Shown: in pieces, positions 7,950 through 26,760 of the stretch | Position numbering within the stretch: the first letter of the stretch is position 1 | Layout of the letters: each line of letters opens with the position of its first letter | Assembly: GCA_002344825.1 (NCBI GenBank) | Contig: DDUN01000003.1 | Span: 1,775 to 65,774 of the forward strand | DNA: 64,000 nt | Direction of reading: 5' to 3' | Source of the DNA: Candidatus Multiplicimicrobium inquinatum | GTDB taxonomy: Bacteria; Omnitrophota; Omnitrophia; Omnitrophales; Aquincolibacteriaceae | Translations under genes and position numbers: made by a program | Notes under the pieces: model-generated | Database searches by the model: none | What the model saw: only the letters and a program-made list of their open reading frames with translations | What the model was told of the DNA's origin: nothing

Positions 7950-8007
7950 GAAGAGAAATTAAAATTTCAAGTGGCGCGGGGACCTATTCGGTTTGTTTTT
8001 GGCTAGT

Positions 8008-8217
8008 TTATGGTCTATAGTCTAGTGCTCGGATGCGTGCCAAGGCTTCGATGACATTTTCACGAAAACCGAAAGCGTTTAAGCGAAAATAGTTTTCTCT
8101 GTGGGGGCCGAATCCCGCTCCCGGAGTTCCTGCAATGTTGGTCTTGCATCTAAGTTTTTTTAAATCAATTAAAAAGTATGATGTTTTTGCGCACCGATAA
8201 CGTTTGTGTATGGTCAA
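8008..8217 (-). pseudogene. Decayed C-terminal fragment (~65 aa) of an LL-diaminopimelate aminotransferase paralog
   Basis: Translation …[39 protein letters not shown] aligns with the C-terminus of the intact dapL at 11712-12941 (…[39 protein letters not shown]). No upstream coding continuation is present. Confidence 0.7.
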
Positions 8218-8336: not shown

Positions 8337-8352
8337 TGATACTATAGTATCA
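8337..8352. promoter_or_regulatory. Perfect 16-bp palindrome tgatactatagtatca, 8 nt upstream of the 8360 start codon
   Basis: Read directly from the sequence. It overlaps the expected RBS/-10 region of the small membrane-protein gene, so it is a candidate operator. Confidence 0.45.
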
Positions 8353-8359
8353 TTACAAT

Positions 8360-8590
8360 ATGTTTAAAATAAAATCTGCTACCCTTGTTATTTGCGTACT
8401 TGTTTTCTTCTTGAATTTGTCTTTGTGTGATATGGCCTTTGCGTATATTGATCCTGGAGCTGGGAGCGCTTTATTTCAGCTTATTATAGCTGGTCTTGCC
8501 GGCCTTTTATGGATAGTTAAGGTTTATTGGCAGAAAATTATAAGTTTTTTTTCTAGGAAAAAAAACGGCAAGAAAACGCCTCCCCAATAA
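8360..8590 (+). CDS. Small membrane protein (76 aa, two predicted TM helices) of unknown function
   Basis: Two hydrophobic segments and a basic C-terminal tail (RKKNGKKTPPQ). No recognisable family. Confidence 0.4.
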   Translation: MFKIKSATLVICVLVFFLNLSLCDMAFAYIDPGAGSALFQLIIAGLAGLLWIVKVYWQKIISFFSRKKNGKKTPPQ

Positions 8591-8600
8591 TCTGTTATTT

Positions 8601-9983
8601 ATGGATCAAAAAAAGATTTTGATCGCCCCGCTTTCCTCGTCTTTTCGTGATCCCGCAGGTTTTGTGTTTAAGGCTTCTCAAGGTATTCAGCGTGCCGTAA
8701 CACATTATGGCCGTGCTTATTACGATGTTCTCATGCAGTCTCCTCTTTATGAGGAGTTGGTTCAGAAAAAATGGCTTGTGGCACACCGTGAGGTTAAAAA
8801 TGAAGACGGGAATTTCTATAAGATTTTAGAGCCTAAGCAAATTCCCGTCATTACCTATCCGCATGAATGGAGTTTTTCTCAGTTTAAAGATGCGGCTCTT
8901 TTAACACTGAAGATACAGCTTCGTGCGATGGATTTGGGACTGAGTCTGCGTGACGCGACACCGTACAATATTCAGTTCGTAGGAACGGATCCCATTCATA
9001 TCGATACGCTTTCATTTGAGAAATTAATTAACCAGCCTTGGAAAGCGTATAAACAATTTTGCGAAATGTTTTTAGCTCCGCTGGCTCTCATGTCCGAAAG
9101 ATCGCTGAATTTTAATAAGTATATGGCGGTAGACTTAAATGGCATGGATTTACTTTTATCAAGCCGGCTTCTTCCGTGTCTTTCTTGGCTTAATCCGATA
9201 TATCTGATACATTTACATTTACACGCATTGAGTCAAAAAAAATATGCTGATTCATCTCATGACACCAAAAATATAAGCATGTCTCCGCAGCGTCTCAAGA
9301 TGTTAATTCACGGGTTATTTGATGGTGTTCAGTCCATAAGGCTTCGCAATCATAAGACAGAGTGGAGCCATTATTATGAGTCTCAAACTCATTACGGCGA
9401 AGATGCGCATAATTTTAAAGCCGATCAAATTAAGCGTTGGATTCTTGATATAGCGCCGAAGCAAACTTTAGATTTGGGGGGCAATGACGGCAAATTCAGC
9501 CGTATTGCTTCCGAATTGGGATCTTATACGCTGTGCGTGGATTTGGATGCGAATTGTATTGAAAGAAACTATCTCAGCTCAAAAACAAATGGAGATAGAA
9601 ATATGCTCCCTGTTTTTCTCGATTTGTCAAAACCTTCTCCACAAATTGGCTGGAGTTGCACAGAGCGGGATAGCTTTTTTAACAGGGTTGCGCCAGATTT
9701 AACCATGGCCCTTGCCTTGATCCATCACCTCAGAATCAGCTTATCCGTTCCACTTGATCTAATTGCATTGTTTTTTAGCAAAATCAAAGGTTATCTTATT
9801 ATTGAGTTTGTGCCGAAAGATGATCCCATGGTTCAAAAACTGTTACTTACACGTGAAGATATATTTTGGGATTATTCAGAAGAGAATTTTAAAAAGTGCT
9901 TTGGTCAGTATTTTCGATTTGTTGAGCAGGTCCAGATTCCTGGGACAAACCGCAATCTCTGTTTGCTTCAATCCAATTCATGA
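8601..9983 (+). CDS. Two-domain protein: N-terminal protein-kinase-like fold (LPS/Kdo-kinase or APH-like) fused to a C-terminal class I SAM-dependent methyltransferase
   Basis: Catalytic-loop-like LSLRDATPYNIQF (compare HRDxxPxNI) followed by IHIDT (DFG-like). C-terminal methyltransferase motif I LDLGGNDGKF…CVDLD. Confidence 0.45.
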   Translation: MDQKKILIAPLSSSFRDPAGFVFKASQGIQRAVTHYGRAYYDVLMQSPLYEELVQKKWLVAHREVKNEDGNFYKILEPKQIPVITYPHEWSFSQFKDAALLTLKIQLRAMDLGLSLRDATPYNIQFVGTDPIHIDTLSFEKLINQPWKAYKQFCEMFLAPLALMSERSLNFNKYMAVDLNGMDLLLSSRLLPCLSWLNPIYLIHLHLHALSQKKYADSSHDTKNISMSPQRLKMLIHGLFDGVQSIRLRNHKTEWSHYYESQTHYGEDAHNFKADQIKRWILDIAPKQTLDLGGNDGKFSRIASELGSYTLCVDLDANCIERNYLSSKTNGDRNMLPVFLDLSKPSPQIGWSCTERDSFFNRVAPDLTMALALIHHLRISLSVPLDLIALFFSKIKGYLIIEFVPKDDPMVQKLLLTREDIFWDYSEENFKKCFGQYFRFVEQVQIPGTNRNLCLLQSNS

Positions 9984-11551
9984 AGCTATCGTTTAAAGAT
10001 CATCCGGTTTTATATCCTTTTTTATTTTCAATTTACTCTCCGTTGTTCATTTTTTCAAATAATGCAAGCGTAATAAGCCTCGGTTTATTTTTTGAAATCT
10101 TAATGGTTGTTTGTGCTGGCGTTACTGTTTTGTATTTGATCCTGAAACAACTCCTAAAAGATTCTCATCGCGCCGGATTTTTTTTTATTGTGATTTTGGC
10201 TTTTTTTATGCTGTATGACAATTTATTCGATTTTGGGATCGGCTATAAAATCGGCGCTTTTCTTGTTTGGCGCCACAAGTATATCCTCCCGGCTTGGACG
10301 CTTATCTTTTTTTTATTCGCCTACTGGTTTCTGATTAAAAAAGTAAAGGTTTCACCAAATTTGACTGGAATTTTAAATGTGGTAGGTCTTGTTCTTGTTT
10401 TGTTGAGCGTATTCAACACTGTTCTTTCGCTGAATGATAAAAGCATACAGAGGAAAGAGGTGGCTGACCCTAAAATAATCCGATCAGAGAGAGGGGTTGT
10501 CGCTGAATCAAGCAATCCCGATATTTATTATATTATTTTAGATATGTATGGCGGGAATGAGGTTCTGCTAGATTATTTTAATTATGACAATACGGATTTT
10601 TATGCTCAGCTCAGAAATCGGGGTTTTTTTGTCGCGGACCGCAGTGTTAGCAATTATGACATTACGCGGCGATCGCTTCCGTCATCTCTCAATATGCGGT
10701 ATCTTGATTTGGAGAACGATTCACAAGATCAAAGTGATTATGCTGATTGGCATAGCGAACTGGTAAAGAACAGTGAGGTTTCTCGTTTTTTAAGAGCGAA
10801 AGGTTACCGATATATCAATGTTGGTTTTAAAAATGAGTATGCCGATGAAAATTATTTTGCCTCTGCGCGTGAAGCAAATGCTTTTGAAAGGTATATTTAT
10901 TACAAAAGTTTATTGGAGCGAACCTTGTTTAAGTATCCGTTTGGATTGTATAGCCCGTCTATCGGAGCAAGTTATCGGAATTCGATCAGTTATCAGTTTA
11001 ATGTTATGCGTGATATCGCCCGATTGGAAGGGCCTAATTTTGTTTACAATCATATTATTTCGCCGCATTGGCCGTATGTGTTTGATAAAAACTGTGAGCC
11101 CACATCTGTATTAAAATCTATCCGTATGGGACAGGGCAAAATGTATACGGACCAGATCCAGTGCGTGAACATTAAAACCCTTGAAGCCATCGATGCGATT
11201 CTTAAGGAGAAAAAGGGAAATGTTGTCATTCTGATTCAGGGGGATCATGGACCCGGCTTCGGATCGGCATCAGATTTTCGCCTGAATCCGGAATGGGTCA
11301 AGCAAAGACATATGATTTTAAACGCGTATTTTTTCCCGCAGGGAAAAATAAGCGAACAGCTTTATGGAGGAATCAGTCCGGTCAACTCATTTAGAGTTGT
11401 CTTTAATGAACTATTTAATCAGAACTTGGAGTTATTTCCCGATAAGGCATTTGCTTTTGAGAATAGCAGGCTTATTGATGTTACAAGCTTGATTCAAAAA
11501 CATGCTAGTAAGCAGAATCAAAGAAGTGTTAGTGATTTAAATCAACCCTAA
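9980..11551 (+). CDS. Membrane-anchored sulfatase/alkaline-phosphatase-superfamily enzyme (LtaS/EptA/OpgB-like phospho-transferase)
   Basis: Five N-terminal TM helices, then a soluble domain containing ILIQGDHGP (the Asp-His metal-ligand pair of the sulfatase family) and an IYYIILDMYGG N-terminal core motif. Confidence 0.5.
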   Translation: MKLSFKDHPVLYPFLFSIYSPLFIFSNNASVISLGLFFEILMVVCAGVTVLYLILKQLLKDSHRAGFFFIVILAFFMLYDNLFDFGIGYKIGAFLVWRHKYILPAWTLIFFLFAYWFLIKKVKVSPNLTGILNVVGLVLVLLSVFNTVLSLNDKSIQRKEVADPKIIRSERGVVAESSNPDIYYIILDMYGGNEVLLDYFNYDNTDFYAQLRNRGFFVADRSVSNYDITRRSLPSSLNMRYLDLENDSQDQSDYADWHSELVKNSEVSRFLRAKGYRYINVGFKNEYADENYFASAREANAFERYIYYKSLLERTLFKYPFGLYSPSIGASYRNSISYQFNVMRDIARLEGPNFVYNHIISPHWPYVFDKNCEPTSVLKSIRMGQGKMYTDQIQCVNIKTLEAIDAILKEKKGNVVILIQGDHGPGFGSASDFRLNPEWVKQRHMILNAYFFPQGKISEQLYGGISPVNSFRVVFNELFNQNLELFPDKAFAFENSRLIDVTSLIQKHASKQNQRSVSDLNQP

Positions 11552-11711: not shown

Positions 11712-12941
11712 CTAAAACGGTAACTTTTGAACGCGGGCAATGGCCTCGATGACGTTATCTCTGAAACCAAAAGCACTTAAACGGAAATAGCCCTCTCCAC
11801 TTGGGCCAAAACCAGATCCGGGGGTTCCTACGATATTTGCTTTTTCGAGTAGTAAATCAAAAAAGTCCCAAGACTTCATATTGTTAGGTGTTTTGAGCCA
11901 AACATAAGGCGCATGTATGCCGCCGAAGGTTTCAATGCCGGCTGATTGCAAGCCCTCGAGAATAAGTTTGGCATTTTCCATATAGTAAGAAATCATTTCT
12001 TTAACTTCTTTTTTACCGGCATTACTGTAAACAGCTTCGGCACCGCGCTGAATCGGATAAGACACCCCATTAAATTTGGTGGCATGGCGGCGATTCCAAA
12101 GACTATGAACAGATACTTTTTCACCTTTTTCATTTTTTGCGAACAAATCTTTTGGAATTACCGTAAAGGCACAGCGGGTTCCGGTGAATCCGGCTGTTTT
12201 CGAGAAGCTGCGGAATTCAATTGCCACTTCGTGCGCGCCTTCAATTTCAAAGATAGAGTGTGGCAAAGAATTGTCGGAAATAAAAGCTTCATAAGCTGCA
12301 TCAAAAAGAATGATGGCATCGTTTTTCTTCGCGAAATCAACCCAGCTCTGCAGGTCCTTGCGGTCAAGTACCGTGCCTGTCGGATTGGCAGGCGAACAAA
12401 GATAAATTAAATCCACTTTTTCTTTCGGAAAAGCCGGCTTGAAATTATTTTCAGCTGTGGCGGGCATATAAACAAAGCCCTCGTACTTACCATCTTTAAA
12501 AGAGCCACTGCGTCCTGCCATGACATTTGTGTCGACATAGACGGGATAAACGGGATCAACCACGGCAATTTTTGAATCAAGGCTGAATATCTCCTGAATA
12601 TTTCCGCAATCGCACTTAGAGCCATCCGAGACAAAAATTTCATCCGCATCAACTTTTGCTCCACGAGATTGAAAGTCGGTTTTAGCGATTGCCTCTCTGA
12701 GAAAGTCGTAGCCTTGTTCCGGGCCATATCCTCGAAAAGTTTTAGCATCGCCCATTTCATCCGTTGCTTTTTTAATCGCATCACGAATCGAGGTGGGGAG
12801 CGGAAGAACGACATCACCTATACCAAGACGAATAATTTTAGCTTGTGGGTTTTTGGCGGAGAATTCTTTTACCCGACGTCCAATTTCGGGAAAAAGATAG
12901 CCAGCCTGCAGTTTTTGGTAGTGAGAGTTGATTTTTGTCAC
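11712..12941 (-). CDS. dapL: LL-diaminopimelate aminotransferase (DapL type)
   Basis: N-terminus [24 protein letters not shown] matches the DapL signature start. PLP-aminotransferase motifs [11 protein letters not shown] and [12 protein letters not shown] are present. Confidence 0.8.
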
Positions 12942-13119: not shown

Positions 13120-14943
13120 ATGAAAAAATTAAAACAGTTTGTAGTCAATTTAAAGAGGCTTCGCCTTTTTCTCAAAAAGCTTGATTTAGAACCTGCGCAT
13201 CTTTTTTTTCCCTCCGTGCTTTCTTTGGGCGCAGCGCTACTTGAAGGGGGGGCGTTTGCCTTGTTGGTGCCAACCATGCGCGGGATTATCGAGGCAAATT
13301 ATCAATTTGCATATTCTGCTTCTGGTTTAGGTTGGGTGTTTCAGATATTTCCCCAGTTATTTTTAAATAACAACACGGCTATATTTATTTTCTTGGTTGC
13401 GCTTATTCTTGTTTTTATTATTATGAAAAATGTATTTGCTTACTCGGCAGCAGTGCTTATTTCCCATCGCATGTGGCGTTTTAACCACCAACTACGCTGC
13501 TTGATTTTTAATGCGTATGTTGGTTTTCGAAAAAGTTTTTTTGATAAAAACAGCGTTGGAAATTTACAAAATATTCTTACTGGTTATACCGAGCAAATTG
13601 CTGTTCAATTTAAACTATTTCAGAATGTGTTGTTCCATTTTTTTGCGCTTATTTCTTATCTAATTATTATGGTGTTTATCTCATGGCGCGTTGCGCTTTT
13701 TACCATAACGCTATTACCAATTATAATTTTTTCATTTAAAAAGTTGATTGGTCAAATTAAATTAAACTCTAATCAATTTGCGATACATTTTTCTGAGTTG
13801 GGAAAAAAAATTCTTAACTCGCTTTCGTGTATGCCGCTTATCAAGGCATCGAGTTCCGAGGAAAAAGAGAGAAAATGGTTTGAACGCACAAGCGATGAGG
13901 TGCGCAAACAGCAGATTAATATGGATGTAAGAATCTTATTAATTCCTCCCATGCAGGAAGTTTTTTTTGTTGTTTTATTATTTGTGTTAACAGGCTTTGT
14001 TGCGTATTTGTCAATCCACAGTCAGGATGGAAGTATCGCAGGGTATCTTGTGTTTTTCGTTATAGCAAGGAGGGCCATGAATAGCATTGGGCAACTTACT
14101 GTTTTTCAAGCGAATCTTGCATCAATTGCTGGGCCCTTAAGGCAAATCATGAAGATTTTTGAAGAAAGAAAAATAAATGAAGAAATTAGTGGCGGGGAGA
14201 TATTTGTTCGTTTTGACGACAGAGTGATAATTAGAAATCTTACTTTTTTTTACCATGAGCGAGACGTGCTCAGAGATGTTTCATTTGAGGTTAAGAAGAA
14301 TGAAATGATTGCCATTGTGGGAAAGACAGGCTCTGGCAAATCGACCTTAGCACAGCTTTTTATGCGTTTCTACGAACCGCCAAGAGGAACCATTTTTATA
14401 GATGGAAAAGATATTTTTGATCTGCAAATAGCATCTTGGAGAAAAAAAATTGCGTTTATTACGCAAGACAATTACCTGTTTGATGCCAGTTTTGAAGTTA
14501 ATGTGAAATACGGATGTGAGCCTGAGCCGTTAAAGGCAGAAATCTTAGATGCTTTGGAGAAAGCGCAGCTCAGTGGGCTTTTAAGCAAGCTTCCGCAGGG
14601 GCTTGCAACCGAGATTGGAGAGCGCGGTATCCAGCTTTCTGGTGGTGAAAGACAGCGCTTGTCTTTGGCGCGCGCTATTTTGAGAAAGCCAGAAATTCTT
14701 ATTTTGGATGAAGCCACAAGTGCTCTTGATTCTCAAACAGAACAATTGGTTCAGCGGGCTATTCTTGAAACTGTGAAAGGCAAAACGTCGATTGTGATAG
14801 CTCATCGACTTTCCACGATAAAGAATGCCGATAAAATCATTTTGCTGGAGGAAGGTAGGATTGTAGAGCAAGGCTCTTTTGATGAGTTGATTGCCTTGAA
14901 TGGGCGGTTTAAGTCATATTGGATGCTGCAAGAGCAGGGATAG
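13120..14943 (+). CDS. ABC exporter with fused permease and ATPase (MsbA/lipid-polysaccharide exporter-like)
   Basis: Six-TM N-terminal half; Walker A GKTGSGKST, signature LSGGERQRLSLARAIL, Walker B ILILDEATSALD. It is the first gene of the polysaccharide locus. Confidence 0.85.
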   Translation: MKKLKQFVVNLKRLRLFLKKLDLEPAHLFFPSVLSLGAALLEGGAFALLVPTMRGIIEANYQFAYSASGLGWVFQIFPQLFLNNNTAIFIFLVALILVFIIMKNVFAYSAAVLISHRMWRFNHQLRCLIFNAYVGFRKSFFDKNSVGNLQNILTGYTEQIAVQFKLFQNVLFHFFALISYLIIMVFISWRVALFTITLLPIIIFSFKKLIGQIKLNSNQFAIHFSELGKKILNSLSCMPLIKASSSEEKERKWFERTSDEVRKQQINMDVRILLIPPMQEVFFVVLLFVLTGFVAYLSIHSQDGSIAGYLVFFVIARRAMNSIGQLTVFQANLASIAGPLRQIMKIFEERKINEEISGGEIFVRFDDRVIIRNLTFFYHERDVLRDVSFEVKKNEMIAIVGKTGSGKSTLAQLFMRFYEPPRGTIFIDGKDIFDLQIASWRKKIAFITQDNYLFDASFEVNVKYGCEPEPLKAEILDALEKAQLSGLLSKLPQGLATEIGERGIQLSGGERQRLSLARAILRKPEILILDEATSALDSQTEQLVQRAILETVKGKTSIVIAHRLSTIKNADKIILLEEGRIVEQGSFDELIALNGRFKSYWMLQEQG

Positions 14944-14990
14944 GGATGGGTTTTGTGCCTCTAAAGATATTGTAAAAATACGGATGACTA

Positions 14991-15560
14991 GTGATGCCGA
15001 TTTGTAGGTTTTGGATTATGGCGGGAAATAGATTAGAGTCCTATTTTGCAACACTTATAGTGCGAGTGCGTTTTTATGGGTGTATTCATGCAAAAGGGAA
15101 GGTAGAGTTTGGCTTCGGGGTCCATTTTATTCCGTTTAATGCAAATAAGTTTTTAAGTGTTGTTTTTGATGGAGGTAATCGAATTGGAAATGGGACTGTA
15201 TTCCAAGGTACCGGTCAGATGACATGGGGAAAGAATTCTTACTGCAGAGGATATTGTGTTTTTGGCACTAATGAAAAAATTGAAATTGGCGCAAATGTTA
15301 TGATAGCTGATGCGGTTTCAATAAGAGACACAGATCATGTTTTCAGCGATATTTCCCGCCCATCTATGGTTCAGGGAATAAAAACAGCCCCCGTTATTAT
15401 TGAAGACAATGCTTGGATAGGGCATGGTGCCGTTGTGCTAAAAGGGGTTCGCATAGGTAGGGGTGCTGTTGTTGGGGCTGGTGCAGTCGTGACTAAAAAT
15501 GTCAAACCCTATGATGTCGTTGCAGGCATTCCAGCAAGAATTATTAGTAAAAGGACTTAG
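14991..15560 (+). CDS. Hexapeptide-repeat (left-handed beta-helix) sugar O-acetyltransferase
   Basis: C-terminal hexapeptide repeats IGANVMIADAVSI…IGHGAVVLKGVRIGRGAVVGAGAVVTKNV…VVAGIPARI. The true start is probably internal to the longest ORF. Confidence 0.75.
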   Translation: MMPICRFWIMAGNRLESYFATLIVRVRFYGCIHAKGKVEFGFGVHFIPFNANKFLSVVFDGGNRIGNGTVFQGTGQMTWGKNSYCRGYCVFGTNEKIEIGANVMIADAVSIRDTDHVFSDISRPSMVQGIKTAPVIIEDNAWIGHGAVVLKGVRIGRGAVVGAGAVVTKNVKPYDVVAGIPARIISKRT

Positions 15561-15569
15561 CTGATTTAA

Positions 15570-16457
15570 ATGGTGAAGCCTTCTTTTTTTGTGGTGGGCA
15601 CGCAAAAAGCCGGGACCACTACTCTTCATGAGATATTGAGACAGCACCCACAAATTTTTTTACCCAAAACTAAAGAGGCGCACTTTTTTGATTTTGACGA
15701 TACATTTACAAAAGGATTTGACTGGTGGGTAGAGACATTTTTCAAGGAATGTAATTCGGGAAAAATAGCTGGTGCAATTACACCCGAATATCTTTTTTAT
15801 CCGGAAGTGCCCTTGAGGATTAAAGAGATGTTAGGGGTAGATGTGAAAATTATTATAATTCTTCGCAATCCTGTTGATCGGGCATTTTCACACTATCTAA
15901 TGACAAAAAGACGGGGGCTTGAAGCTTTAAGTTTTGATCAGGCTGTGGCAAAAGAGGCTGAAAGGTTGAAGGCGGGAAGAGACTTTGAAAGAGTGCATTA
16001 CAGCTATTTCTCTCGTGGTTTGTATGCTAAGCAAGTAAAACGCTATCTTGATTTGTTTGGTGCGAAAAATGTATTAATTTTGAAATTCGAGGAAGATTTC
16101 TTGAAAGATAAATTAGCCACAATCGAAAAAATTTTGCGATTTCTGAATGTCTCGGTTATTCAATTAGATGTTGCAAAGAAAAGTAATTCCGCGTCGCGAC
16201 CAAGAATGCCTGCGTTGAGCAGGTTTTTGTATTCAAGGAACTGGTTTAAAGAAAAAATTAAAAGAATTATTGTGTCGAAGGGGATAAGAAAAGAAATAAA
16301 GAATGTGTTAGTGTTTTTAGATCGTTTGAACCAGACAAAGACGAGATTAGAATATTTAACGTTGTATCAGAGAAAAAAGTATCTAAAATTATTCCACGAA
16401 GACATTAAGAAGTTAAGCCTGTTGACAGCGATGTCGTTTCAAGAGTGGTATGAATAG
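15570..16457 (+). CDS. Sulfotransferase (PAPS-dependent)
   Basis: 5'-PSB motif VVGTQKAGTTTL and 3'-PB motif ILRNPVDRAFSHY. Confidence 0.8.
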   Translation: MVKPSFFVVGTQKAGTTTLHEILRQHPQIFLPKTKEAHFFDFDDTFTKGFDWWVETFFKECNSGKIAGAITPEYLFYPEVPLRIKEMLGVDVKIIIILRNPVDRAFSHYLMTKRRGLEALSFDQAVAKEAERLKAGRDFERVHYSYFSRGLYAKQVKRYLDLFGAKNVLILKFEEDFLKDKLATIEKILRFLNVSVIQLDVAKKSNSASRPRMPALSRFLYSRNWFKEKIKRIIVSKGIRKEIKNVLVFLDRLNQTKTRLEYLTLYQRKKYLKLFHEDIKKLSLLTAMSFQEWYE

Positions 16458-17442
16458 TTTGCTCAATCAAGGTTTTTTAGAGAAGCGTATTGCGATTGTT
16501 ATTCTTAATTATAATAGCGCAAAAGATTTAAAAATATTTTTAGCTCAATTAATTAGCCAAAGGGGGGCGTTTCTTTCTTTTGTGATAGTAGATAATGCAT
16601 CGCAGAAAGATTCTGTCGAAAGTTTTCAGTCTTGGCTTGCAAGCTGGCGACCCGATGCTTTTTGCGGGACACCCCGTCAGGCTGAAGAATGGATAATGCA
16701 GTACCCACAAATTGCCAGCAGAGATAAAAATATTTTTTTTATAAAAAATAGTGAAAACCGAGGTTTTTCTGCCGGAAATAATATTGGAATTCGGGTGGCA
16801 GAGAAATTAAATGTCGATGCTGTGCTAATCACCAATCCCGATATTTGTATTGAAGGCAGTGAGTGCGTGGCTGATTTGGGACGCCAGCTTTTTTCTAGCG
16901 CCGAATTTTGTGTGGCAGTACCTCGTGTTTTATATTTTGGGAAGGACCAAAATCCTCGTTGGGAGCCAACGACCTTCTGGGAGGAGTTGTTTTGGTTGTC
17001 GCCATTTCCATTTGCCAAAATAAGGCGATCTGATTTAACTGAAAACTTGAAGCCTCATGAAATTGACCAGTTTGCGGGTTGTTTCTTCATGGTAAAACTA
17101 GATTTTTTAAGGAAAATAAATTATTTAGATGAAAGGTTTTTTCTTTATCGAGAAGAAGCTATGCTGTCAGTAAGGGCCAAAACAAACGAACAAAAAATAC
17201 TGTATGTCCCTCAGGTTTGTGTCAAGCATGAAAGCATCCACTCAGATCAAAAGTCCCATCTATTTTTGCGGCAGTACCATTTGCTTCGAAGTAAAAAAAT
17301 ATTCCTAGAAAACCACACAGCATTTGGAGCGCTCGGGCGTTTCTTGATTTTGTTTTTTAATGCACTTTGGGCGTTATGGCCTATTTTTAAAAATATTTTC
17401 TTAAAAAGAACCAGAAAAAATGAGAAGCGTAGGCAAGGCTAA
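16450..17442 (+). CDS. Glycosyltransferase family 2
   Basis: IAIVILNYNSAKD…VDNASQKD N-terminal GT-A motifs; the C-terminal region contains GCFFMV. Confidence 0.75.
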   Translation: MNSLLNQGFLEKRIAIVILNYNSAKDLKIFLAQLISQRGAFLSFVIVDNASQKDSVESFQSWLASWRPDAFCGTPRQAEEWIMQYPQIASRDKNIFFIKNSENRGFSAGNNIGIRVAEKLNVDAVLITNPDICIEGSECVADLGRQLFSSAEFCVAVPRVLYFGKDQNPRWEPTTFWEELFWLSPFPFAKIRRSDLTENLKPHEIDQFAGCFFMVKLDFLRKINYLDERFFLYREEAMLSVRAKTNEQKILYVPQVCVKHESIHSDQKSHLFLRQYHLLRSKKIFLENHTAFGALGRFLILFFNALWALWPIFKNIFLKRTRKNEKRRQG

Positions 17443-17445
17443 ACG

Positions 17446-18525
17446 ATGAAAAAAAAATATATTAAAATCTTACACGTTGTTGGCGCTCGGCCTAATTTTA
17501 TGAAGGTGGCCCCTGTGATGAGAGCTGTTTCTAAATACAAGAGATTTAAACAAATCCTTGTTCATACGGGACAACATTACAGTGCAAACATGTCTGATGT
17601 TTTTTTTCAGCAGTTAGATCTCCCCAAACCTGATTACAGCCTAGGAGTGGGATCTGGCACACATACCTTTCAAACGGCGCAAGTTATGATTCGATTTGAA
17701 AAGGTGGTAGACCATGAGAAACCCAGTTTGGTAATCGTTTATGGAGATGTGAATTCAACAGTAGCTGCTGCCCTTGTTTGTGCAAAAAAGGGTATAAAAA
17801 TCGGGCATGTGGAGGCTGGGCTTAGATCTTTTGATAGAGAAATGCCCGAGGAAACTAATAGGATTTTGACAGATCACCTATGTCAGTATCTTTTTACGCC
17901 TTCGCTTGATGGTAATCAAAATTTAATCAAAGAGGGTATTTCAGCAAAGAAAATTTTTTTTGTTGGGAATGTCATGATAGATACGCTTGTTTATCTTGAG
18001 CCCAAACTAGAAAAGCCAAAGATAGAAGGGCTTTCAGAAAAATATGTGCTTGTAACGTTGCATAGGCCTTCAAATGTTGATGATTCTCAAAGACTGAAGT
18101 TTATATTTAAAGAACTTGTGCGTGTAAGTAAATTTTTTCAAATTATTTTCCCTGTTCACCCTCGAACCAAAGAGAGATTAGAAAAAATAAACCCATCACT
18201 TTTGAGAAAAAAACAAATTTTATTTACAGATCCACTTGGGTATGTGGAGTTTTTATCATTAGAGAAAAATGCGGTGGCTGTACTAACTGATTCCGGCGGT
18301 GTTCAAGAAGAAACCACCTATTTAGGAATTCCCTGCTTTACTCTCCGTGATAATACAGAGCGTCCGATCACACTAACAATCGGAACAAATCATTTGTTAG
18401 GAAGCCGCCCCAAAGAATTGTTTTTTCATTTAATGAAACATAAAAAACGTGTCGCTAAAATACCTGCGTTGTGGGACGGGAAAGCTGCGGGGCGAATAGC
18501 AAATGTGCTGAATCAAGTAATTTAA
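17446..18525 (+). CDS. wecB: UDP-N-acetylglucosamine 2-epimerase (non-hydrolysing)
   Basis: KILHVVGARPNFMKVAPV, HTGQHYS and DSGGVQEE motifs; ~360 aa. Confidence 0.85.
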   Translation: MKKKYIKILHVVGARPNFMKVAPVMRAVSKYKRFKQILVHTGQHYSANMSDVFFQQLDLPKPDYSLGVGSGTHTFQTAQVMIRFEKVVDHEKPSLVIVYGDVNSTVAAALVCAKKGIKIGHVEAGLRSFDREMPEETNRILTDHLCQYLFTPSLDGNQNLIKEGISAKKIFFVGNVMIDTLVYLEPKLEKPKIEGLSEKYVLVTLHRPSNVDDSQRLKFIFKELVRVSKFFQIIFPVHPRTKERLEKINPSLLRKKQILFTDPLGYVEFLSLEKNAVAVLTDSGGVQEETTYLGIPCFTLRDNTERPITLTIGTNHLLGSRPKELFFHLMKHKKRVAKIPALWDGKAAGRIANVLNQVI

Positions 18526-18526
18526 A

Positions 18527-19549
18527 ATGATTTATTTTCTTGTTCCTAGAAATCTTTCCAGGGCAGTTGCTGCGTCTCAGATCGTTCCAATGGCTGCGAA
18601 TATTCCCAATCAGGTAAAAACTATAGTTTTTAAATCTAATAAAAATTTTATCCAAACCGAAAACTCTTTGTTGCTGAAACAAAGTTTGGTGGTGATGCTG
18701 ATTTGCAATTTGAAGTCAGGCGATGTTGTTTATACTCGAGAATTTGATGATTTTTTAAAGAGTCTTTTTGTTAAGATTATTTTGAGAAAAAAGATCAAAA
18801 TAATCTATAACTTTAGAGGGTTGGGTAGCGAAGAAAGCTGGGGGAGGCATAGATCGAAAATTAGACGAAGCATTTTGCAGGTAATTGAAGGCTTAATATA
18901 TTATTGTGCTGATGAGGTTGTTGTGGTTTCGAATAATTTTAAAAGATACTTAAAGCATAAATATGGAAGCAGAAAAACGGATGTTATTGAGATGCACTGT
19001 TCAGTTGCGAGAAATTATTTGAAGCAATCATTTTCTCGAGGTTCTTTACGATTTCTTTACTTAGGCGGATTCAGTGTTTGGCAAAAGCCATGTGAAGTAA
19101 TCGAGATTTTTAAAAAATTGAAGAAAAAGTATCATGGCTCAAAGCTTACTATTATTAGTTATAGTCAGCCGGATGCCCGGCTTCAGAACTTAATTGAATC
19201 TAATAACGTCGAGATTATATCTCTTTCGCATGAAAATGTAGTTCAAGTGTTGCCATTATATGATTTTGGATTTATTTTGCGCGACAACATTTTAATGAAT
19301 CAGGTTTCATCACCAATTAAGTTTTCCGAGTATGTGGCCATGGGTGTTGTTCCAATTATCAGTCCTGGAGTTGGCGATTTTTATGAAGTGTCTAAGCGTA
19401 AGGCGCTGGCTGTTTGCACGAATGACCACTTTGATTTTAGTTTAGATGATTTTGAAAAAATTCTCAATGATGAGAAAATTCATGAAAGACTGTATGAGTT
19501 TTCAAAGGATTTTCTTTGGAAGAATTCCTTGAGAAAATTTCCAGTCTGA
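18527..19549 (+). CDS. Divergent GT-B fold glycosyltransferase (GT4-like)
   Basis: LYLGGFSVWQKP… and the C-terminal SPIKFSEYVAMGVVPIISPGVGD resemble the GT4 E-x7-E region. Weak overall. Confidence 0.4.
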   Translation: MIYFLVPRNLSRAVAASQIVPMAANIPNQVKTIVFKSNKNFIQTENSLLLKQSLVVMLICNLKSGDVVYTREFDDFLKSLFVKIILRKKIKIIYNFRGLGSEESWGRHRSKIRRSILQVIEGLIYYCADEVVVVSNNFKRYLKHKYGSRKTDVIEMHCSVARNYLKQSFSRGSLRFLYLGGFSVWQKPCEVIEIFKKLKKKYHGSKLTIISYSQPDARLQNLIESNNVEIISLSHENVVQVLPLYDFGFILRDNILMNQVSSPIKFSEYVAMGVVPIISPGVGDFYEVSKRKALAVCTNDHFDFSLDDFEKILNDEKIHERLYEFSKDFLWKNSLRKFPV

Positions 19550-19587
19550 TGAGTTGATTTTTAATCGAGATGGTTGGAGATATTTGA

Positions 19588-20361
19588 ATGAGACCTAAGT
19601 TAGAAGTGTTAGTTTCATGCATGTATCAAATCGATATGTCAATTGTAGAGAGAGCGAATATTTCATCAAGTGCTGTTGTTGTTAATCAATGTGATAGAGA
19701 CTTGTATGAAGAGATTGCTGTGGGCGAAAATAGAATTAGAATGTTCTCATGTTTGGATAGAGGTTTATCGAAAAGTAGAAATAAAGCGTTAAAAGAGTCC
19801 GCGGCTGACATTTGTTTGTTGTGCGATGATGATGAACATCTTGAAGATGATTATGTTTCAAAAATACAAGAAGCATATGAGAAATATCCTGATGCGGATA
19901 TTATCGCATTTAGGCTTGAGCGATCGTCTCGTTCTTATTGGACTGTCCCTAGAAGAATTAACTATCTCAACTCTTTGAAAATCTCTTCGTGTCAAATCAG
20001 CTTTAAACGAAATAGCATTATCGGACGCGGCATTTTTTTTGATGAGACATTTGGCGCTGGAACAAGGTACAGTTTTGGCGAAGAAAATATTTTTTTGTAT
20101 GAATGTTTAAAAAAGGGGCTCAAAGTATATTATCTTCCAATAAAAATAGCTTTTGTTGCTGATGAAAAATCAACATGGTTTAATGGGTTTACAACGCAAT
20201 ATTTTTTTAACCGGGGTGTAATTACTCGAAGGTATATGGGGAGATTTTTTGCAATTCTATACGCTATTTATTTTGCTGTTTTTAAGTACTCCATTTATAA
20301 ATCAGCGACTCCCTTTCGAACAGCTTTGGGAAAGATGATCGAAGGTGTTTGGAGAGATTAG
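19588..20361 (+). CDS. Glycosyltransferase family 2-like
   Basis: RGLSKSRNKALKESAADICLLCDDDEHLED matches the GT2 substrate-binding/DxD region. Confidence 0.55.
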   Translation: MRPKLEVLVSCMYQIDMSIVERANISSSAVVVNQCDRDLYEEIAVGENRIRMFSCLDRGLSKSRNKALKESAADICLLCDDDEHLEDDYVSKIQEAYEKYPDADIIAFRLERSSRSYWTVPRRINYLNSLKISSCQISFKRNSIIGRGIFFDETFGAGTRYSFGEENIFLYECLKKGLKVYYLPIKIAFVADEKSTWFNGFTTQYFFNRGVITRRYMGRFFAILYAIYFAVFKYSIYKSATPFRTALGKMIEGVWRD

Positions 20362-20519
20362 ACTTGACCGCCAAACATCAAAAGATTTGGAAGTGAGGGA
20401 GACTTTTTTGTGGAGCGGCATTACACTTTGGTTTGCAAAAACGCAGATTTTTTTTAAGTAAAGCATAGTCTGTTTTTTCGAAGAAAATAAGACAAGTTCT
20501 TTTTTGTAAGGAGCTCAAT

Positions 20520-21701
20520 GTGAAGCATAAAACAACAAGAATGTGTGAATTCCTATGGCCGCTATACTTTATGGGATTTGCTTTGTTGCGTCCAGTAGTT
20601 AAACATTATGAAGAGCATAGCACCTTGATTTTAGTGGGTTTTGCATCATTAATCTCAGTTATATTTTTCTTTAATTATTTATGGACGCGCCAATTTAAGT
20701 GGGGTAGCGTCATCAATTTTATTTTAATCGTTACAAGTTTATTTTCTGTCGACATGTTGCTTCGCGGTAATTCTTTTTCCAACAGATATTTTTATGAATT
20801 TTTATATGGCCCCTTAGTTTCTGTTTTTCTTCTATCGCAGGTGCGGGACACAAAGCATTTATTGTTTGTTTACTCTTTTTTTTCGTTGCTGTTATTTGTG
20901 CTTTTTTGTGCGGATCCTTTTCGTGGATATGCTGTTTTTGGAGACTATATGGGGTGGGGGTTTAGTGTTGCCACGCCGGCTTTTATGGGGTTGTATCTTG
21001 GAGCGCGTTTTTTAAAAATGAGATGGATGTTTATTTTTGCGGGGGTATGTTTTTTTGAAACGCTTGTTTATGCAAACCGAGGTGCTTTTTTAAGTATTGT
21101 TTTTTTTCTTCTTCTGATGGAGCTTTTTTTAAATGTTTGGAATTTCAATAAAATGATCAAGTATCTGATTTTTTCGGTTTTTGTATTGTTTTTGGCCGGA
21201 AATATAGAGTCGATTTTTTTATCTGGGTACGATTTTGTGAAAAATCTAGGATACAAAAGCTATGCTTTAGAGAAGTTTTTTGATTTTTTGTTTGGGCAGG
21301 GCGATTCTCGGTTTATGTCCGATCGTGATGTGATATGGAGGGCCGCAATTGAAATGATTGATGAAAAACTTTTCTGGGGGCATGGAATGGGGGCTTTTCA
21401 AGAAAGGTTTGATGCTTACTCCCACAATATTTTTCTTGATTTTGCAATTTTTTATGGGGTTGTAGGAGCTCTGATATTTCTTTTGATTATTTTTTTTGCT
21501 TTGATTAAAGCGTTGGCTTTTAAAGAAGCTAATAAGCTTCTTGCTTTTTTATTTCTGTGCTTATGGTTTCCCAAACTTTTTTTTAGCCTTGTCTTTGTTG
21601 CAGACACTGCTTTTTGGTGTTTTCTATCTTTTGGGTTTATGGCCAAAAACTTATTGCTATATAGAAAGAAATTGCCTAGCAACCAGGGAGCTCAAGTGTG
21701 A
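20520..21701 (+). CDS. O-antigen ligase/polymerase-family polytopic membrane protein (Wzy_C-like)
   Basis: About 10 TM segments and a large loop containing WGHGMGAF (O-antigen ligase family motif). Confidence 0.55.
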   Translation: MKHKTTRMCEFLWPLYFMGFALLRPVVKHYEEHSTLILVGFASLISVIFFFNYLWTRQFKWGSVINFILIVTSLFSVDMLLRGNSFSNRYFYEFLYGPLVSVFLLSQVRDTKHLLFVYSFFSLLLFVLFCADPFRGYAVFGDYMGWGFSVATPAFMGLYLGARFLKMRWMFIFAGVCFFETLVYANRGAFLSIVFFLLLMELFLNVWNFNKMIKYLIFSVFVLFLAGNIESIFLSGYDFVKNLGYKSYALEKFFDFLFGQGDSRFMSDRDVIWRAAIEMIDEKLFWGHGMGAFQERFDAYSHNIFLDFAIFYGVVGALIFLLIIFFALIKALAFKEANKLLAFLFLCLWFPKLFFSLVFVADTAFWCFLSFGFMAKNLLLYRKKLPSNQGAQV

Positions 21702-22426
21702 GTGTTCGGGATATGGCAAGCAAGCTTGATCACTCGCTTTCATACAAAAAGGTAAGTTTCAAAAACGCAGGGCATTTTTGCAGAAAAAAATCAATTTTAA
21801 ACCTAATCCATTCATTTAACTTGAACCCAGAGGGCACCTATTTTGATGTGGGTTGTAGCAATGGATATTTGACCCGTCTAATCACGGATGAGATTGGATT
21901 TAAAAAAGTTGTGGGATTGGATCACGCGGAAAGCCATTTAGAGAGGGCTCGGCTAGAAAACCCAGCAATAATTTTTGATTTTATTGATTTAAATTTAGTG
22001 CCACGGAGTGGGTGCCGTGAGGGTAGTGCTGATTTTGTAACCTGCTTTGAATGTTTGGAGCACGTGGGGAGTGTTAATAATGCAATTAAAAATATAGTTT
22101 CACTTTCAAAAGAGAAATCAGTAATTTTCGTTTCGGTTCCCATAGAGATTGGTTTTTGGGGAGTAATTAAGTTTCTTTGTAAGACAATTATTTTTCAGTA
22201 TCGGTTGGATGAGTTGGCAGGTAAGCCCAGATGGAGTGAATATTTTTTTGATTTGATTAAGGGTGCCCGAATTTCAAAATATCGCGAGCTGCGTCAAGGG
22301 TGGAGTACGCATTTTGGGTTTGACTATCGCGAGGTAGATGAAGAGTTTTTAAAATTGGGACTCAAATTTAAAGCGTTTAACTCATTTACGACACGATTTT
22401 ATGTGATTAAGAGGGGGCAGGGTTGA
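21698..22426 (+). CDS. Class I SAM-dependent methyltransferase
   Basis: Motif I YFDVGCSNGYLT and motif II VTCFECLEHV. Confidence 0.7.
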   Translation: MSVRDMASKLDHSLSYKKVSFKNAGHFCRKKSILNLIHSFNLNPEGTYFDVGCSNGYLTRLITDEIGFKKVVGLDHAESHLERARLENPAIIFDFIDLNLVPRSGCREGSADFVTCFECLEHVGSVNNAIKNIVSLSKEKSVIFVSVPIEIGFWGVIKFLCKTIIFQYRLDELAGKPRWSEYFFDLIKGARISKYRELRQGWSTHFGFDYREVDEEFLKLGLKFKAFNSFTTRFYVIKRGQG

Positions 22427-23457
22427 AGGTTTCCATTATTATTCCGACTTATCAAGAGATGAAGTGGATTGAAAAATGCCTGTTGAGTCTTTTGAAAAAT
22501 AACTTGAATGTGGGTGAAGCAGAAATTCTTATTGTTGATGGCATAAGTACGGATGGAACCCGAAATATTGTAAGTCAATATATTGCTAAGTACCCCGGCC
22601 TTATCCGTATGATTGACAACTCTCGGTCATTTCAAGTCTTTGGGCTCAATGAGGCTATAAGAGAAGCAAAAGGGGAAATTATTATTCGGTGTGATGCCCA
22701 CAGTCAGTATCCCGATGGCTACGTCGAAACTCTTTTTGGGTGGCATGAAAAAAATGTTGCGGATAATATCGGAGGGTGCTGGGATACTCTTCCAGGGGCG
22801 GGCACAGCCAAAGCAAAAGGGATTGCTATTGCGATGACATCTCCGGCGGGTGTGGGTTTTTCGTATCGAACAGCGCATGGCACTAATCCGCGCTATGTAG
22901 ATACTGTGCCGTTTGGTAGCTGGAAAAGAAGCTTGTTTGATGAAGTGGGTTTTTTTGATGAGCGGTTTATTCGGGCTCAAGATTTAGAGCATAATGTTCG
23001 CATGAAAAAAATGGGCAAGAAGATAATGCTTTTGCCCTGGTTAAAAATTAAATACCACGCACGTGATAGTTGGCGAAAAATTTTTGAAATGTTTTTTCAG
23101 TATGGGTATTGGAAGAATAAAATTAACAAAAAGCATAAAATTCTTACAACATGGCGACAAATTGTCCCCCCGCTTTTTCTTTTAGGGGCGATATTTTTAC
23201 TTTTGGGAAGTATTTCATTTTTATATCTTCGTGAATTGGCGGTGATTTGTTTTTTAAGCTACTTCTTAATCTTGTTCGCGGTATCTGTTAGCTTGGTTCG
23301 TAAGCAAGCCCAGCCAGCTGAGCTGTCCTTTTATGTTGCGACTTCTTTTGTGGTGATTCATCTTGCTTATGCGCTAGGGTACTGCAAAGGTCTTTGGGAT
23401 TATTTTATTTTAAATCGAGACGATGAGCCAAATCATGTTAAAAACTTAACCAGGTGA
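22423..23457 (+). CDS. Glycosyltransferase family 2 with C-terminal TM helices
   Basis: KVSIIIPTYQE, ILIVDGISTDGT and RCDAHSQYP motifs; two or three C-terminal TM segments. Confidence 0.75.
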   Translation: MKVSIIIPTYQEMKWIEKCLLSLLKNNLNVGEAEILIVDGISTDGTRNIVSQYIAKYPGLIRMIDNSRSFQVFGLNEAIREAKGEIIIRCDAHSQYPDGYVETLFGWHEKNVADNIGGCWDTLPGAGTAKAKGIAIAMTSPAGVGFSYRTAHGTNPRYVDTVPFGSWKRSLFDEVGFFDERFIRAQDLEHNVRMKKMGKKIMLLPWLKIKYHARDSWRKIFEMFFQYGYWKNKINKKHKILTTWRQIVPPLFLLGAIFLLLGSISFLYLRELAVICFLSYFLILFAVSVSLVRKQAQPAELSFYVATSFVVIHLAYALGYCKGLWDYFILNRDDEPNHVKNLTR

Positions 23458-23783
23458 GGTTGATGTTTTAACGATGGTTGCGGATACTCCTCTGATTCAA
23501 TAATGGATGCCATGACTCGATCTGGAGCAATGCCATTTGTGATTATTGGACATTGAGATAGGAAACAGTATGCACGTGATCTTAAAAAGCAATTTTTGAT
23601 CAGTTTCGCTCCAATTGTGCCGTATATATTCATGGTCACAGCGCGGGCGGTACGAGTTCCGTTTTGATAGAGGAGATTGCATTTGAAAGAAGAATTTTTG
23701 CATATGCCGTTGCTTATAACCAAATTACTACCGAATATCGCGTAGCAGCTTGAAACTAAATTATGGCAAAAAGTATTTTTGGA

Positions 23784-23850
23784 ATGATATCGACCGTAGT
23801 TTCTTTTTTAATATAAGCTCTCGGTTTTAATGGCCAGAAGGATGGGTTGG
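23784..23850 (+). pseudogene. Remnant of a GT2 glycosyltransferase 5' end, paralogous to the start of the gene at 26761
   Basis: atgatatcgaccgtagtttcttttttaatataa is ~90% identical to atgatatcgatcgtagttcctttttttaatataa at 26761-26793 (MISIVVPFFNI…). A one-T difference in the T-run shifts the frame, so the remnant reads MISTVVSFLI followed by a stop. Confidence 0.55.
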
Positions 23851-23854
23851 GTAA

Positions 23855-26364: not shown

Positions 26365-26590
26365 GTTTATTTTAAAAAAAGTGGAAGCGCAAGGCGTTCA
26401 AGATATACCAGATGACGCCAAGTTGATTGAGTTGGGAATATTGGATTCATTTCTAGTTGTTGAGTTGATGACTTACATCGAAGAACAGTTTCGCATCAAG
26501 ATTGATGTTTCAGATTTGACAGAAGAAAATGTTGCTACTTTGAGACACATAGAAAAATTTGTTTTGGAAAAAATCAAGAGCGTGGAATAG
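26342..26590 (+). CDS. Acyl carrier protein-like (phosphopantetheine attachment)
   Basis: 82 aa; LGILDSFLVVELMTYIEEQF contains the conserved Asp-Ser attachment motif in helix II context. Confidence 0.65.
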   Translation: MIIKKVREFILKKVEAQGVQDIPDDAKLIELGILDSFLVVELMTYIEEQFRIKIDVSDLTEENVATLRHIEKFVLEKIKSVE

Positions 26591-26760
26591 GGTGATTGAT
26601 TTGAGGGGGCACCGGGGCATTGGGCTAGGTTGTCTTCGGCAGAGTTTCAAAGCTAGAAATCAGAACAATGACAGATCTTTTCTGGTCGATCTGCACCAAA
26701 AGATGGTTTTTTCTGTTGGCGTCCTTAAAGGGCAAAAGAATATATCGAGGGCATTTTGAG

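Follow-up and report, generated by a model that had tools for sequence, protein, structure and literature searches.

The window, a 64,000-nucleotide stretch of DNA from an uncultured Omnitrophota bacterium from bioreactor sludge, carries a cassette of three consecutive genes encoding a 76-amino-acid (aa) membrane peptide, a 460-aa kinase-like/methyltransferase fusion, and a 523-aa membrane enzyme (Table 1). These are real genes, all on the forward strand, and the start of the third overlaps the stop of the second by 4 nt. The cassette lies between a fragment of dapL and an intact dapL gene, as the preliminary description had claimed. The fragment matches the last ~70 residues of the intact copy at 54% protein identity (tblastn, E = 7e-18), and its DNA is 70% identical to the intact gene over 105 nt. 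Because DNA identity is only 70%, we reject a recent tandem duplication of dapL. G+C content is 36 to 41% over positions 8000 to 11500, compared with 41 to 51% upstream and 43 to 44% in dapL; the cassette of this window looks like a separate acquisition adjoining a dapL remnant. A scan for promoters and terminators gave no signal above the shuffled expectation, so that the boundaries of the transcription unit are not definable in this way. An anti-phage defense island was also considered and was dropped because a PADLOC scan gave no meaningful system match. In itself, the window copy has nothing unusual about it.

Table 1. Coordinates of the cassette genes, their domains, and flanking features in the window
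Feature	Position	Strand	Remarks
dapL (LL-diaminopimelate aminotransferase) 3'-end remnant	8008..8217	-	Second, diverged copy; left border; context only
Small membrane peptide gene, 76 aa	8360..8590	+	Homologous to Lani_1193 and to the unnamed 71-aa ORF that separates nodL from noeA
Mature N-terminal octapeptide, residues 29-36	8444..8467	+	YIDPGAGS
NoeA-type fusion gene, 460 aa	8601..9983	+	
NoeA-type fusion, protein-kinase-like domain, residues 1-250	8601..9350	+	
NoeA-type fusion, class I SAM-dependent methyltransferase domain, residues ~265-460	9393..9983	+	
NoeB-type membrane enzyme, 523 aa	9980..11551	+	PF00884, family alignment, hhalign to Ensifer NoeB
Intact dapL	11712..12941	-	Abuts right border of cassette
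Glycan locus	13120..27843		Next to cassette

The N-terminal half of the 460-aa protein was modeled on its own (residues 1 to 250), because fold searches with the full-length protein were dominated by methyltransferase matches. The resulting model has a protein-kinase-like fold with a catalytic D-x4-N and a downstream Asp, in agreement with the kinase-like core that had been proposed. This resemblance is seen by fold comparison only: residues 1 to 260 had no Pfam or NCBIfam match even at E values up to 1, including the expected Kdo/WaaP and APH families as well as Pkinase and Choline_kinase, and neither the single sequence of the domain nor its profile matched a sequence in the PDB. The motifs quoted in the preliminary description are where it had placed them (LRDATPYNIQF at 116 to 126, IHIDT at 132 to 136, and LDLGGNDG at 290 to 297 of the fusion and GDHG at 421 to 424 of the 523-aa protein). 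The predicted catalytic loop reads L-R-D118-A-T-P-Y-N123-I-Q125 and the DFG-like Asp would be D135 (IHIDTLSF), such that equivalents of PKA D166, N171, and D184 are conserved; all three residues are invariant in an alignment of 42 diverse sequences, which argues for catalysis. SFRDPAG (residues 14 to 20) stands in place of the Gly-rich loop. Since R31 occupies the position of the ATP-binding beta3 Lys and no ion-pair Glu is evident in the alignment, the domain may be inactive or may catalyze a different reaction.

The C-terminal half is a class I methyltransferase, as had been claimed, according to a domain search, structural matches, and motif I (D291-L-G-G-N-D-G297), with acidic residues D314 and D316 and a post-beta4 motif, D341-L-S-K-P-S-P. 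Among its very best structural matches is the methyltransferase domain of WbdD, of which only that domain aligns, at 16 to 17% identity. The full-length model is a rigid two-domain arrangement (pTM 0.92), and the protein contains no transmembrane (TM) or other hydrophobic segment. At least 7,969 database relatives align over the full length at 42 to 55% identity, all of them uncharacterized MAG proteins. The kinase domain alone matches between 1,436 and 4,919 clusters of 50% identity, according to the E-value cutoff, and these span many bacterial phyla and some archaea.

The 523-aa protein, which has ~3,500 database relatives, matches PF00884 (E = 4.5e-8; 33.2 bits against a cutoff of 25) and is predicted to comprise five N-terminal TM helices (~residues 9 to 153) followed by an extracytoplasmic alkaline-phosphatase-superfamily domain. 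A topology with the N terminus inside and the catalytic domain outside is supported by hydropathy, with four strong segments and one weaker one, and by the charge of the basic loops at 57 to 67 and 118 to 124. Conserved residues include D188 (PDIYYIILD), T229-R-R-S232-L-P, H358, H363-x-P365, and Q420-G-D422-H-G424; D188, H358, H363, and D422 are invariant in the family alignment, and T229 is present in at least 90% of sequences. T229 is thus a putative nucleophile and the Asp/His residues are putative metal ligands. A regex search found no C/S-x-P-x-R formylglycine motif, Thr being at the nucleophile position, and for lack of this motif we rejected a true sulfatase. The weak PDB matches of the protein (E = 0.003 and weaker) are true sulfatases. 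Altogether, these features indicate a Thr-nucleophile transferase.

The architectural assignment to the LtaS/EptA type, made before any searches, stands: the EptA/MCR-1/LtaS/GacH-type transferases (PF00884) share with the NoeB type the five N-terminal TM helices, the extracytoplasmic catalytic domain, the Thr-x-x-Ser-(L/V)-Pro nucleophile motif, the Asp/His metal ligands, and the lack of a formylglycine motif. However, neither the sequence nor its profile significantly matched any solved EptA, MCR, or LtaS chain, and obligatory pairing with a kinase-methyltransferase and a small peptide is a property of the NoeB type and not of those systems. A lipid A/LOS phosphoethanolamine operon of the eptA type was likewise considered and rejected; the enzyme lacks the EptA/MCR/LtaS match, and no lipid A or two-component genes are neighbors.

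The 76-aa peptide has no Pfam or PADLOC match, and a literature search for YLDPGTGS and its variants returned unrelated sequences only. A Sec-type signal peptide (residues 1 to 28, ending in AFA) precedes a mature peptide of ~50 residues and 5 kDa, with a single TM helix at ~residues 37 to 53 containing a conserved Gln40, a juxtamembrane K54-V-Y-W57-Q-K-I, and a basic tail. Across homologues from Bacteria to Archaea, the mature N terminus is an almost invariant Y-[LI]-D-P-G-[ST]-G-S, which always lies exactly at the predicted signal peptidase site, where Ala at -3 and -1 is typical of signal peptidase I, or at the N terminus itself. Counts in 80 mature sequences are 78 for Y, 76 for D, 74 for P, 79 for G, 80 for S, 78 for Q12, and 70 for W29. 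No Ser, Thr, or Tyr is conserved in the cytoplasmic tail, where position 28 is Y, F, or S. By predicted topology, no component of the module other than the peptide reaches both sides of the membrane. Two database proteins, P0280 (...KVYWNKLK-SSFRDPSG...) and P0257, are in-frame fusions of the small peptide to NoeA, which place the C terminus of the peptide on the kinase side. Either fusion may be an artifact of assembly or gene calling. The new element here is this description of the small peptide: its signal peptidase site, its conserved N terminus, its single TM helix, and the rare proteins in which it is naturally fused to NoeA. Comparative work thereby defines an overlooked third component, which is predicted to cross the membrane once, to be processed by signal peptidase, and to expose an invariant octapeptide on the outer face.

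The preliminary description did not recognize the domain fusion as a characterized system. Judged from sequence comparisons, the cassette belongs to a system already known, the NoeA family with its NoeB partner and a small peptide, and its three genes follow the order seen around noeA and noeB in Sinorhizobium meliloti and S. medicae. A BLASTp alignment of the fusion with Ensifer canadensis NoeA covers residues 2 to 453 (32% identity over 98% of the length, E = 1e-69), and tblastn matched the fusion to 57 Sinorhizobium pSym plasmids. The NoeB-type family of the window aligned with Ensifer NoeB over 273 columns (hhalign probability 96%, E = 4.9e-9). In Ensifer, the operon order is nodL, an unnamed 71-aa ORF, noeA, and noeB, and that ORF carries AHA/YLDPGTGS...Q...W. 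NoeA and NoeB have been host-range genes by name since 1995, when Ardourel et al. reportedly named them on genetic grounds within a nodL-noeA-noeB host-range operon with nod box n5; the abstract of that work is said to describe noeA and noeB mutants without detectable change in Nod factor structure. Identity between the rhizobial and window proteins is low (32% for NoeA and 21% for NoeB), the known copies are from plant symbionts and Legionella whereas this one is from Omnitrophota, and the window cassette lacks both the nod box and an adjacent nodL. A hexapeptide acetyltransferase resembling NodL is encoded 3.4 kb from the cassette.

A keyword literature search for a kinase/methyltransferase/sulfatase gene cluster returned nothing. 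The same family was described in a 2022 survey of kinases by Krysinska et al. as the novel "Lani_1194" kinase-methyltransferase family with conserved neighbors, 94% of its homologues being fused to a methyltransferase (PMC9758233). The Lani_1193-1194-1195 cluster of Legionella anisa is the equivalent of both the rhizobial small ORF-noeA-noeB and the window cassette, and the Lani_1194 family shares with the window fusion the Arg in place of Lys, the conserved D/N/D, and the kinase-then-methyltransferase architecture (PMC9758233). The same-strand neighbors typical of the family, a small protein upstream and a NoeB-like gene downstream, are both present in the window. HHpred tied Lani_1195 to EptA (5FGN, E = 3e-27) in that study, whose authors also guessed at a phospho/methyl envelope substituent (PMC9758233). 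The preliminary description had put forward the same guess, an envelope glycan or lipid bearing a (methyl-)phospho substituent, which is a plausible candidate.

We sampled 80 genome loci carrying the kinase/methyltransferase gene. By tblastn, a small-peptide homologue adjoins that gene in 69 of them, making the peptide its most faithfully coinherited partner. A NoeB-like gene was found within 5 kb in 57 loci, and in 41 it follows immediately downstream in the same orientation; among the 51 loci with sufficient flanking sequence it was present in 39, leaving about a quarter with no NoeB nearby. Published neighbor frequencies are 65% for the small peptide and 38% for the NoeB-like gene in 816 neighborhoods (PMC9758233). 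Gene order is conserved over many bacterial phyla and some archaea, and CPR bacteria also carry the module. The cassette is an Omnitrophota representative of this three-gene module, which is horizontally mobile and belongs among the more widespread uncharacterized gene trios associated with the envelope. Glycan genes stand beside many loci, including this one (GT2, epimerases, Wzm/Wzt-type ABC transporters, and heptose-nucleotide genes). A Pfam census of 144 neighboring genes at 26 loci revealed no conserved fourth partner, the neighbors being heterogeneous. Wzt-like ATPases adjoin the module in a few of the 80 loci, not in most, and since the crude "Wzt" neighbor cluster is a mixture of ABC ATPases, we built no argument on it.

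We think it somewhat probable that the NoeA/NoeB/small-peptide module uses membrane-tethered chemistry to decorate an envelope or secreted glycoconjugate with phospho-/methyl groups. The single-pass peptide, with its basic, Trp-containing juxtamembrane tail facing the cytoplasm, would keep the soluble, cytoplasmic NoeA on the inner side of the membrane. There, like WbdD, NoeA would add a phosphate from ATP and then a methyl group from SAM to a substrate associated with the membrane. On the outer face, the active site of NoeB, with its Thr nucleophile and metal center, would attach a phospho-substituent to the product of the NoeA pathway or strip one from it, and the outward-facing YLDPGSGS octapeptide might serve as an acceptor or a point of contact. 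The net outcome would be a phospho-/methyl-decorated envelope or secreted glycoconjugate. The absence of a TM segment from NoeA and the peptide-NoeA fusions support tethering, and the glycan genes beside many loci support the link to the envelope. Conversely, presence of the module in archaea and CPR bacteria, with their very different envelopes, argues against any single glycan substrate, and the heterogeneous neighbors and the loci without NoeB count against this mechanism, as does the Nod factor structure that is reportedly unchanged in the mutants.

Alternatively, the small peptide may be a substrate or covalent carrier and not merely an anchor, a reading we consider possible though unlikely. 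NoeB would then place a phospho-head-group on the octapeptide (Tyr1, Thr/Ser6, or Ser8), and NoeA might instead, or in addition, phosphorylate or methylate the cytoplasmic tail, giving a modified membrane-bound or released peptide. PptA and EptC offer a precedent in that they modify pilin and FlgG with a phospho-head-group. The coinheritance of the peptide, the near invariance of the octapeptide at the cleavage site or N terminus, its exposure on both faces, the self-contained nature of the module in very diverse genomic and envelope contexts, and the reported absence of Nod factor changes all agree with a substrate. However, the tail offers no conserved acceptor residue, the intramembrane Gln and juxtamembrane Trp would better suit contacts with lipids or other proteins, fusion to an enzyme is more typical of anchors than of substrates, and NoeB is missing near about a quarter of the well-flanked loci. 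It is more doubtful that the mature peptide is the real product of the module, modified by NoeB at its outer N terminus and by NoeA on its cytoplasmic side, or that it carries a phospho-/methyl group from one side of the membrane to the other, as DltX does with D-alanine. If true, this would represent a new class of peptide-based envelope or signaling molecule extending from Archaea to rhizobia and would explain how noeA and noeB affect host range with reportedly no visible change in Nod factors.

Like the NoeA type, WbdD of E. coli O9a (PDB 4azs and 4ax8) combines a eukaryotic-like kinase fold and a class I methyltransferase in one polypeptide. It performs kinase-then-methyltransferase chemistry at the membrane, placing a methyl-phosphate on a lipid-linked glycan and terminating O-antigen chains (PMC3482155). 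The cytoplasmic side of the membrane is where WbdD works, and the NoeA fusion is proposed to work there too. It is conceivable, if improbable, that NoeA is such a terminator for the neighboring ABC-transporter-dependent glycan, with a methyl-phosphate cap as the export signal and NoeB decorating after export. Yet WbdD runs methyltransferase, kinase, coiled coil, while the fusion has the reverse domain order and no coiled-coil ruler, and we therefore did not class it as a WbdD-type chain terminator; WbdD, Lcin_0519, and Lani_1194 were also treated as distinct kinase-methyltransferase families in the 2022 study (PMC9758233). Furthermore, the ABC protein of the window is a fused MsbA-type half transporter rather than Wzm/Wzt and lies beyond the oppositely oriented dapL, and most loci have no ABC transporter nearby, several sitting among housekeeping genes such as topA. 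We give little credence to production of a soluble head-group precursor, in which an ethanolamine/choline-type kinase and a phosphoethanolamine N-methyltransferase would make phosphocholine or a related phospho-base that ends on the envelope. Just as improbable is a regulatory role for the kinase-like domain, as a protein kinase or pseudokinase, with the gene cluster reflecting coregulation and not a shared chemical pathway. The pseudokinases IRAK3 and NFR5 are among the best structural neighbors of the domain and the canonical Lys/Glu pair is missing, but D118, N123, and D135 are invariant, the methyltransferase fusion is obligatory in 94% of homologues (PMC9758233), and the rigid two-domain model and translational coupling point to one pathway.

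The 460-aa protein of the cassette, with its N-terminal kinase-like domain and C-terminal class I methyltransferase, matches NoeA of Sinorhizobium/Ensifer symbiotic plasmids, both in tblastn searches of annotated plasmids and by blastp (32% identity over 98% of length, E 1e-69). In the Ensifer canadensis operon, the order is nodL, a 71-aa "hypothetical protein," noeA, and noeB ("sulfatase-like hydrolase/transferase"). The 71-aa ORF encodes the same peptide as the small protein of the window (…VPAHA|YLDPGTGSMLVQ…W…). With hhalign, Ensifer NoeB aligns to the NoeB family of the window at 96% probability, and the two share the T-x-x-S-V-P, H-x-x-x-P-H-x-P, and GDHG motifs. In the literature, noeA and noeB figure as genes for host-specific nodulation, hypothesized to modify Nod factor, and failure to nodulate some Medicago genotypes has been correlated with a naturally occurring truncation of noeA. 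A 1995 paper on noeA and noeB reportedly detected no Nod-factor change in mutants of either gene.

The fusion, which the preliminary description had taken for an unrecognized system, had also been named Lani_1194, a novel kinase-like family, by Krysinska et al. (Sci Rep 2022, PMC9758233); the module is thus already named and described bioinformatically, and is known from sequence rather than biochemistry. In Lani_1194, R38 replaces K72 of PKA, the equivalents of D166, N171, and D184 are kept, no ion-pair Glu was found, and 94% of ~2,000 homologues also carry the methyltransferase domain (PMC9758233). Among 816 neighborhoods, homologues of Lani_1193 and of Lani_1195/NoeB (the Legionella anisa counterparts of the small peptide and NoeB) occurred in 65% and 38%, respectively; HHpred tied Lani_1195 to EptA, and Lani_1193 was tabulated only as a hypothetical protein without meaningful hits (PMC9758233). 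These findings agree with ours, to which we add descriptions of the small peptide and the NoeB catalytic motif that point to simple, decisive experiments. Within the C-lobe of the kinase-like domain, one Cys and several His residues are also invariant (C154, H204, H208, and H62; FC...HxHLHA); the published family description does not mention them, and they could form a metal site or substrate-binding feature.

In the window, the three ORFs are all present and co-directional, and every motif quoted in the preliminary description lies at its implied position. Its domain interpretation, a kinase-like/methyltransferase fusion followed by a five-TM sulfatase-family enzyme, proved right, with support from folds, conserved residues, PF00884, and hydropathy. 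The 10-nt gap between the first two ORFs and 4-nt overlap between the last two are the usual signature of translational coupling. Genes upstream of the cassette appear unrelated to it.

Features of the cassette and its surroundings in the window
Feature	Position	Strand	Remarks
Upstream genes	5561-7829		Two tandem HSP20 small heat-shock genes on -; LigT-type 2'-5' RNA ligase/cyclic phosphodiesterase; DUF493
dapL 3' remnant, diverged	8008-8217	-	54% protein, 70% DNA identity to end of intact dapL; left cassette edge
Small protein, 76 aa	8360-8590	+	ORF call
Kinase-like/methyltransferase fusion, 460 aa	8601-9983	+	ORF call
Sulfatase-family (NoeB-type) protein, 523 aa	9980-11551	+	ORF call; PF00884
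Intact dapL	11712-12941	-	Right cassette edge
Long co-directional surface-glycan locus	13120-27843	+	Starts beyond intact dapL

The small protein matched no family, yet no other gene accompanies the fusion gene as faithfully. In 80 genomes that span many bacterial phyla and include one MAG each of Nitrosopumilaceae and Methanobacteriota, tblastn located it next to the fusion gene in 69 loci, almost always immediately upstream and in the same orientation. Its motif-aligned consensus is (A-x-A)|Y-[LI]-D-P-G-[ST]-G-S, with Ala dominant at -3 and -1 as in signal peptidase I sites, then a 17-residue hydrophobic helix with a near-invariant Gln at position 12, [KR]-x-[YF]-W-x-[KR]-I-K-x-F-F, and a tail that is basic first and acidic after. 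Conservation is high (Y in 78/80, D in 76, P in 74, the second G in 79, S in 80/80, Q in 78, and W in 70). Some Chloroflexota peptides have no signal peptide and start M(A)YLDPGSGS. By the positive-inside rule, the octapeptide would face outward and the tail the cytoplasm. In two database proteins, P0280 (...KVYWNKLK-SSFRDPSG...) and P0257, the YLDPGTGS peptide continues in-frame into the kinase domain of the NoeA homologue, which puts the tail on the side of the soluble enzyme and suggests that the peptide may anchor it. These fusions are a possible Rosetta-stone sign of physical association, or may be assembly or gene-calling artefacts.

The 523-aa protein scores above the Pfam cut-off for PF00884 and has ~3,500 relatives at 30 to 36% identity. 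The family alignment shows an invariant D188 (PDIYYIILD), along with a T229-x-x-S232-L-P motif, H358, H363-x-P, and Q-G-D422-H-G; a C/S-x-P-x-R formylglycine motif is absent from the protein. In EptA and MCR-1, a Thr-x-x-Ser-(L/V)-Pro arrangement surrounds the Thr nucleophile. Hydropathy, together with the placement of basic loops, supports five TM helices and an N terminus on the inside, a topology that puts the catalytic domain on the outer side of the membrane. Given this layout, these motifs, and PDB sequence matches that were marginal and all to true sulfatases, the protein represents a distinct subfamily with EptA/LtaS architecture. The NCBI gene model (482 aa) starts 41 codons later, differing at window positions 9980-10102. 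Since homologues have a conserved TM segment at their N terminus (consensus HPFLF...N) to which the 41 extra residues align, and the longer ORF begins 4 nt within the end of the fusion gene, the 523-aa start is probably correct.

A NoeB-like gene lay within 5 kb in 57 of the 80 loci; among the 51 loci with flanks of 2.5 kb or more on each side, 39 had one. In 41 loci it came immediately downstream in the same orientation. Loci lacking it had ordinary housekeeping neighbors, such as topA. A Pfam census of 144 neighboring genes returned no conserved fourth partner; recurrent glycan-related neighbors were GT2, sugar epimerases/dehydratases, Wzm/Wzt-type transporters, cytidylyltransferases, and a GDP-heptose gene set. 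In 4 of the first 26 loci, including L012, L014, and L017 (CPR/Patescibacteria), the glucosamine-6-phosphate synthase gene glmS lay within a few kilobases of the module, far above expectation for a single-copy gene; shared synteny within CPR may be the simple reason.

The analysis shows the folds, the conservation of catalytic residues, the predicted topology, the linkage of the genes, and the homology to NoeA/NoeB; the mechanism considered most likely is an inference. The small peptide would hold NoeA at the cytoplasmic membrane face, where it would carry out ATP-dependent phosphorylation and SAM-dependent methylation of a membrane-associated substrate, a step with mechanistic precedent in WbdD, the kinase-methyltransferase that terminates E. 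coli O9a O-antigen chains. On the outer face, NoeB would act in the same pathway as a Thr-nucleophile phosphotransferase or phosphodiesterase. The earlier proposal of a phospho or methyl-phospho substituent on an envelope glycan or lipid is a reasonable guess. The leading alternative would make the peptide itself the substrate or carrier. It is favored by the invariant, exactly processed, outward-facing N terminus and by a module that is self-contained across organisms with very different envelopes; however, the tail of the peptide has no conserved phospho-acceptor, and the peptide-enzyme fusions look anchor-like.

The surface-glycan locus beyond intact dapL encodes an MsbA-type ABC exporter, a hexapeptide acetyltransferase (41% identity to NodL over the C-terminal 104 residues), a sulfotransferase, several GT2/GT4/GT1 enzymes, a UDP-GlcNAc 2-epimerase, a separate methyltransferase, and two Wzy_C (O-antigen ligase/polymerase-like) proteins. 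Its acetyltransferase and sulfotransferase pair recalls the NodL/NodH-type decorations encoded near rhizobial noeA and noeB. We consider a WbdD-like terminator dedicated to this adjacent locus less likely than the membrane-anchored NoeA/NoeB pathway or the reading with the peptide as substrate, and the same holds for a soluble phospho-base pathway and for a purely regulatory kinase.

The position of the cassette between a dapL remnant and intact dapL fits acquisition by insertion or replacement. Recent duplication of dapL is disfavored by the divergence of the remnant. Together with a drop in G+C across the cassette (36 to 41%, AT-richer than the housekeeping flanks), these edges suggest that most of an older dapL was displaced when incoming DNA delivered the cassette, perhaps along with a new dapL. 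Database comparison found an identical 460-aa protein on contigs of a bioreactor-sludge Candidatus Omnitrophota MAG (GCA_035436425.1). Among PLSDB matches, noeA-like and noeB-like pairs occur on small and large plasmids of Planctomycetota, Gemmatimonadota, and a deltaproteobacterium, and such carriage fits a horizontally mobile module. On Singulisphaera acidiphila plasmid pSINAC01 (locus L087), the pair adjoins an IS4 transposase.
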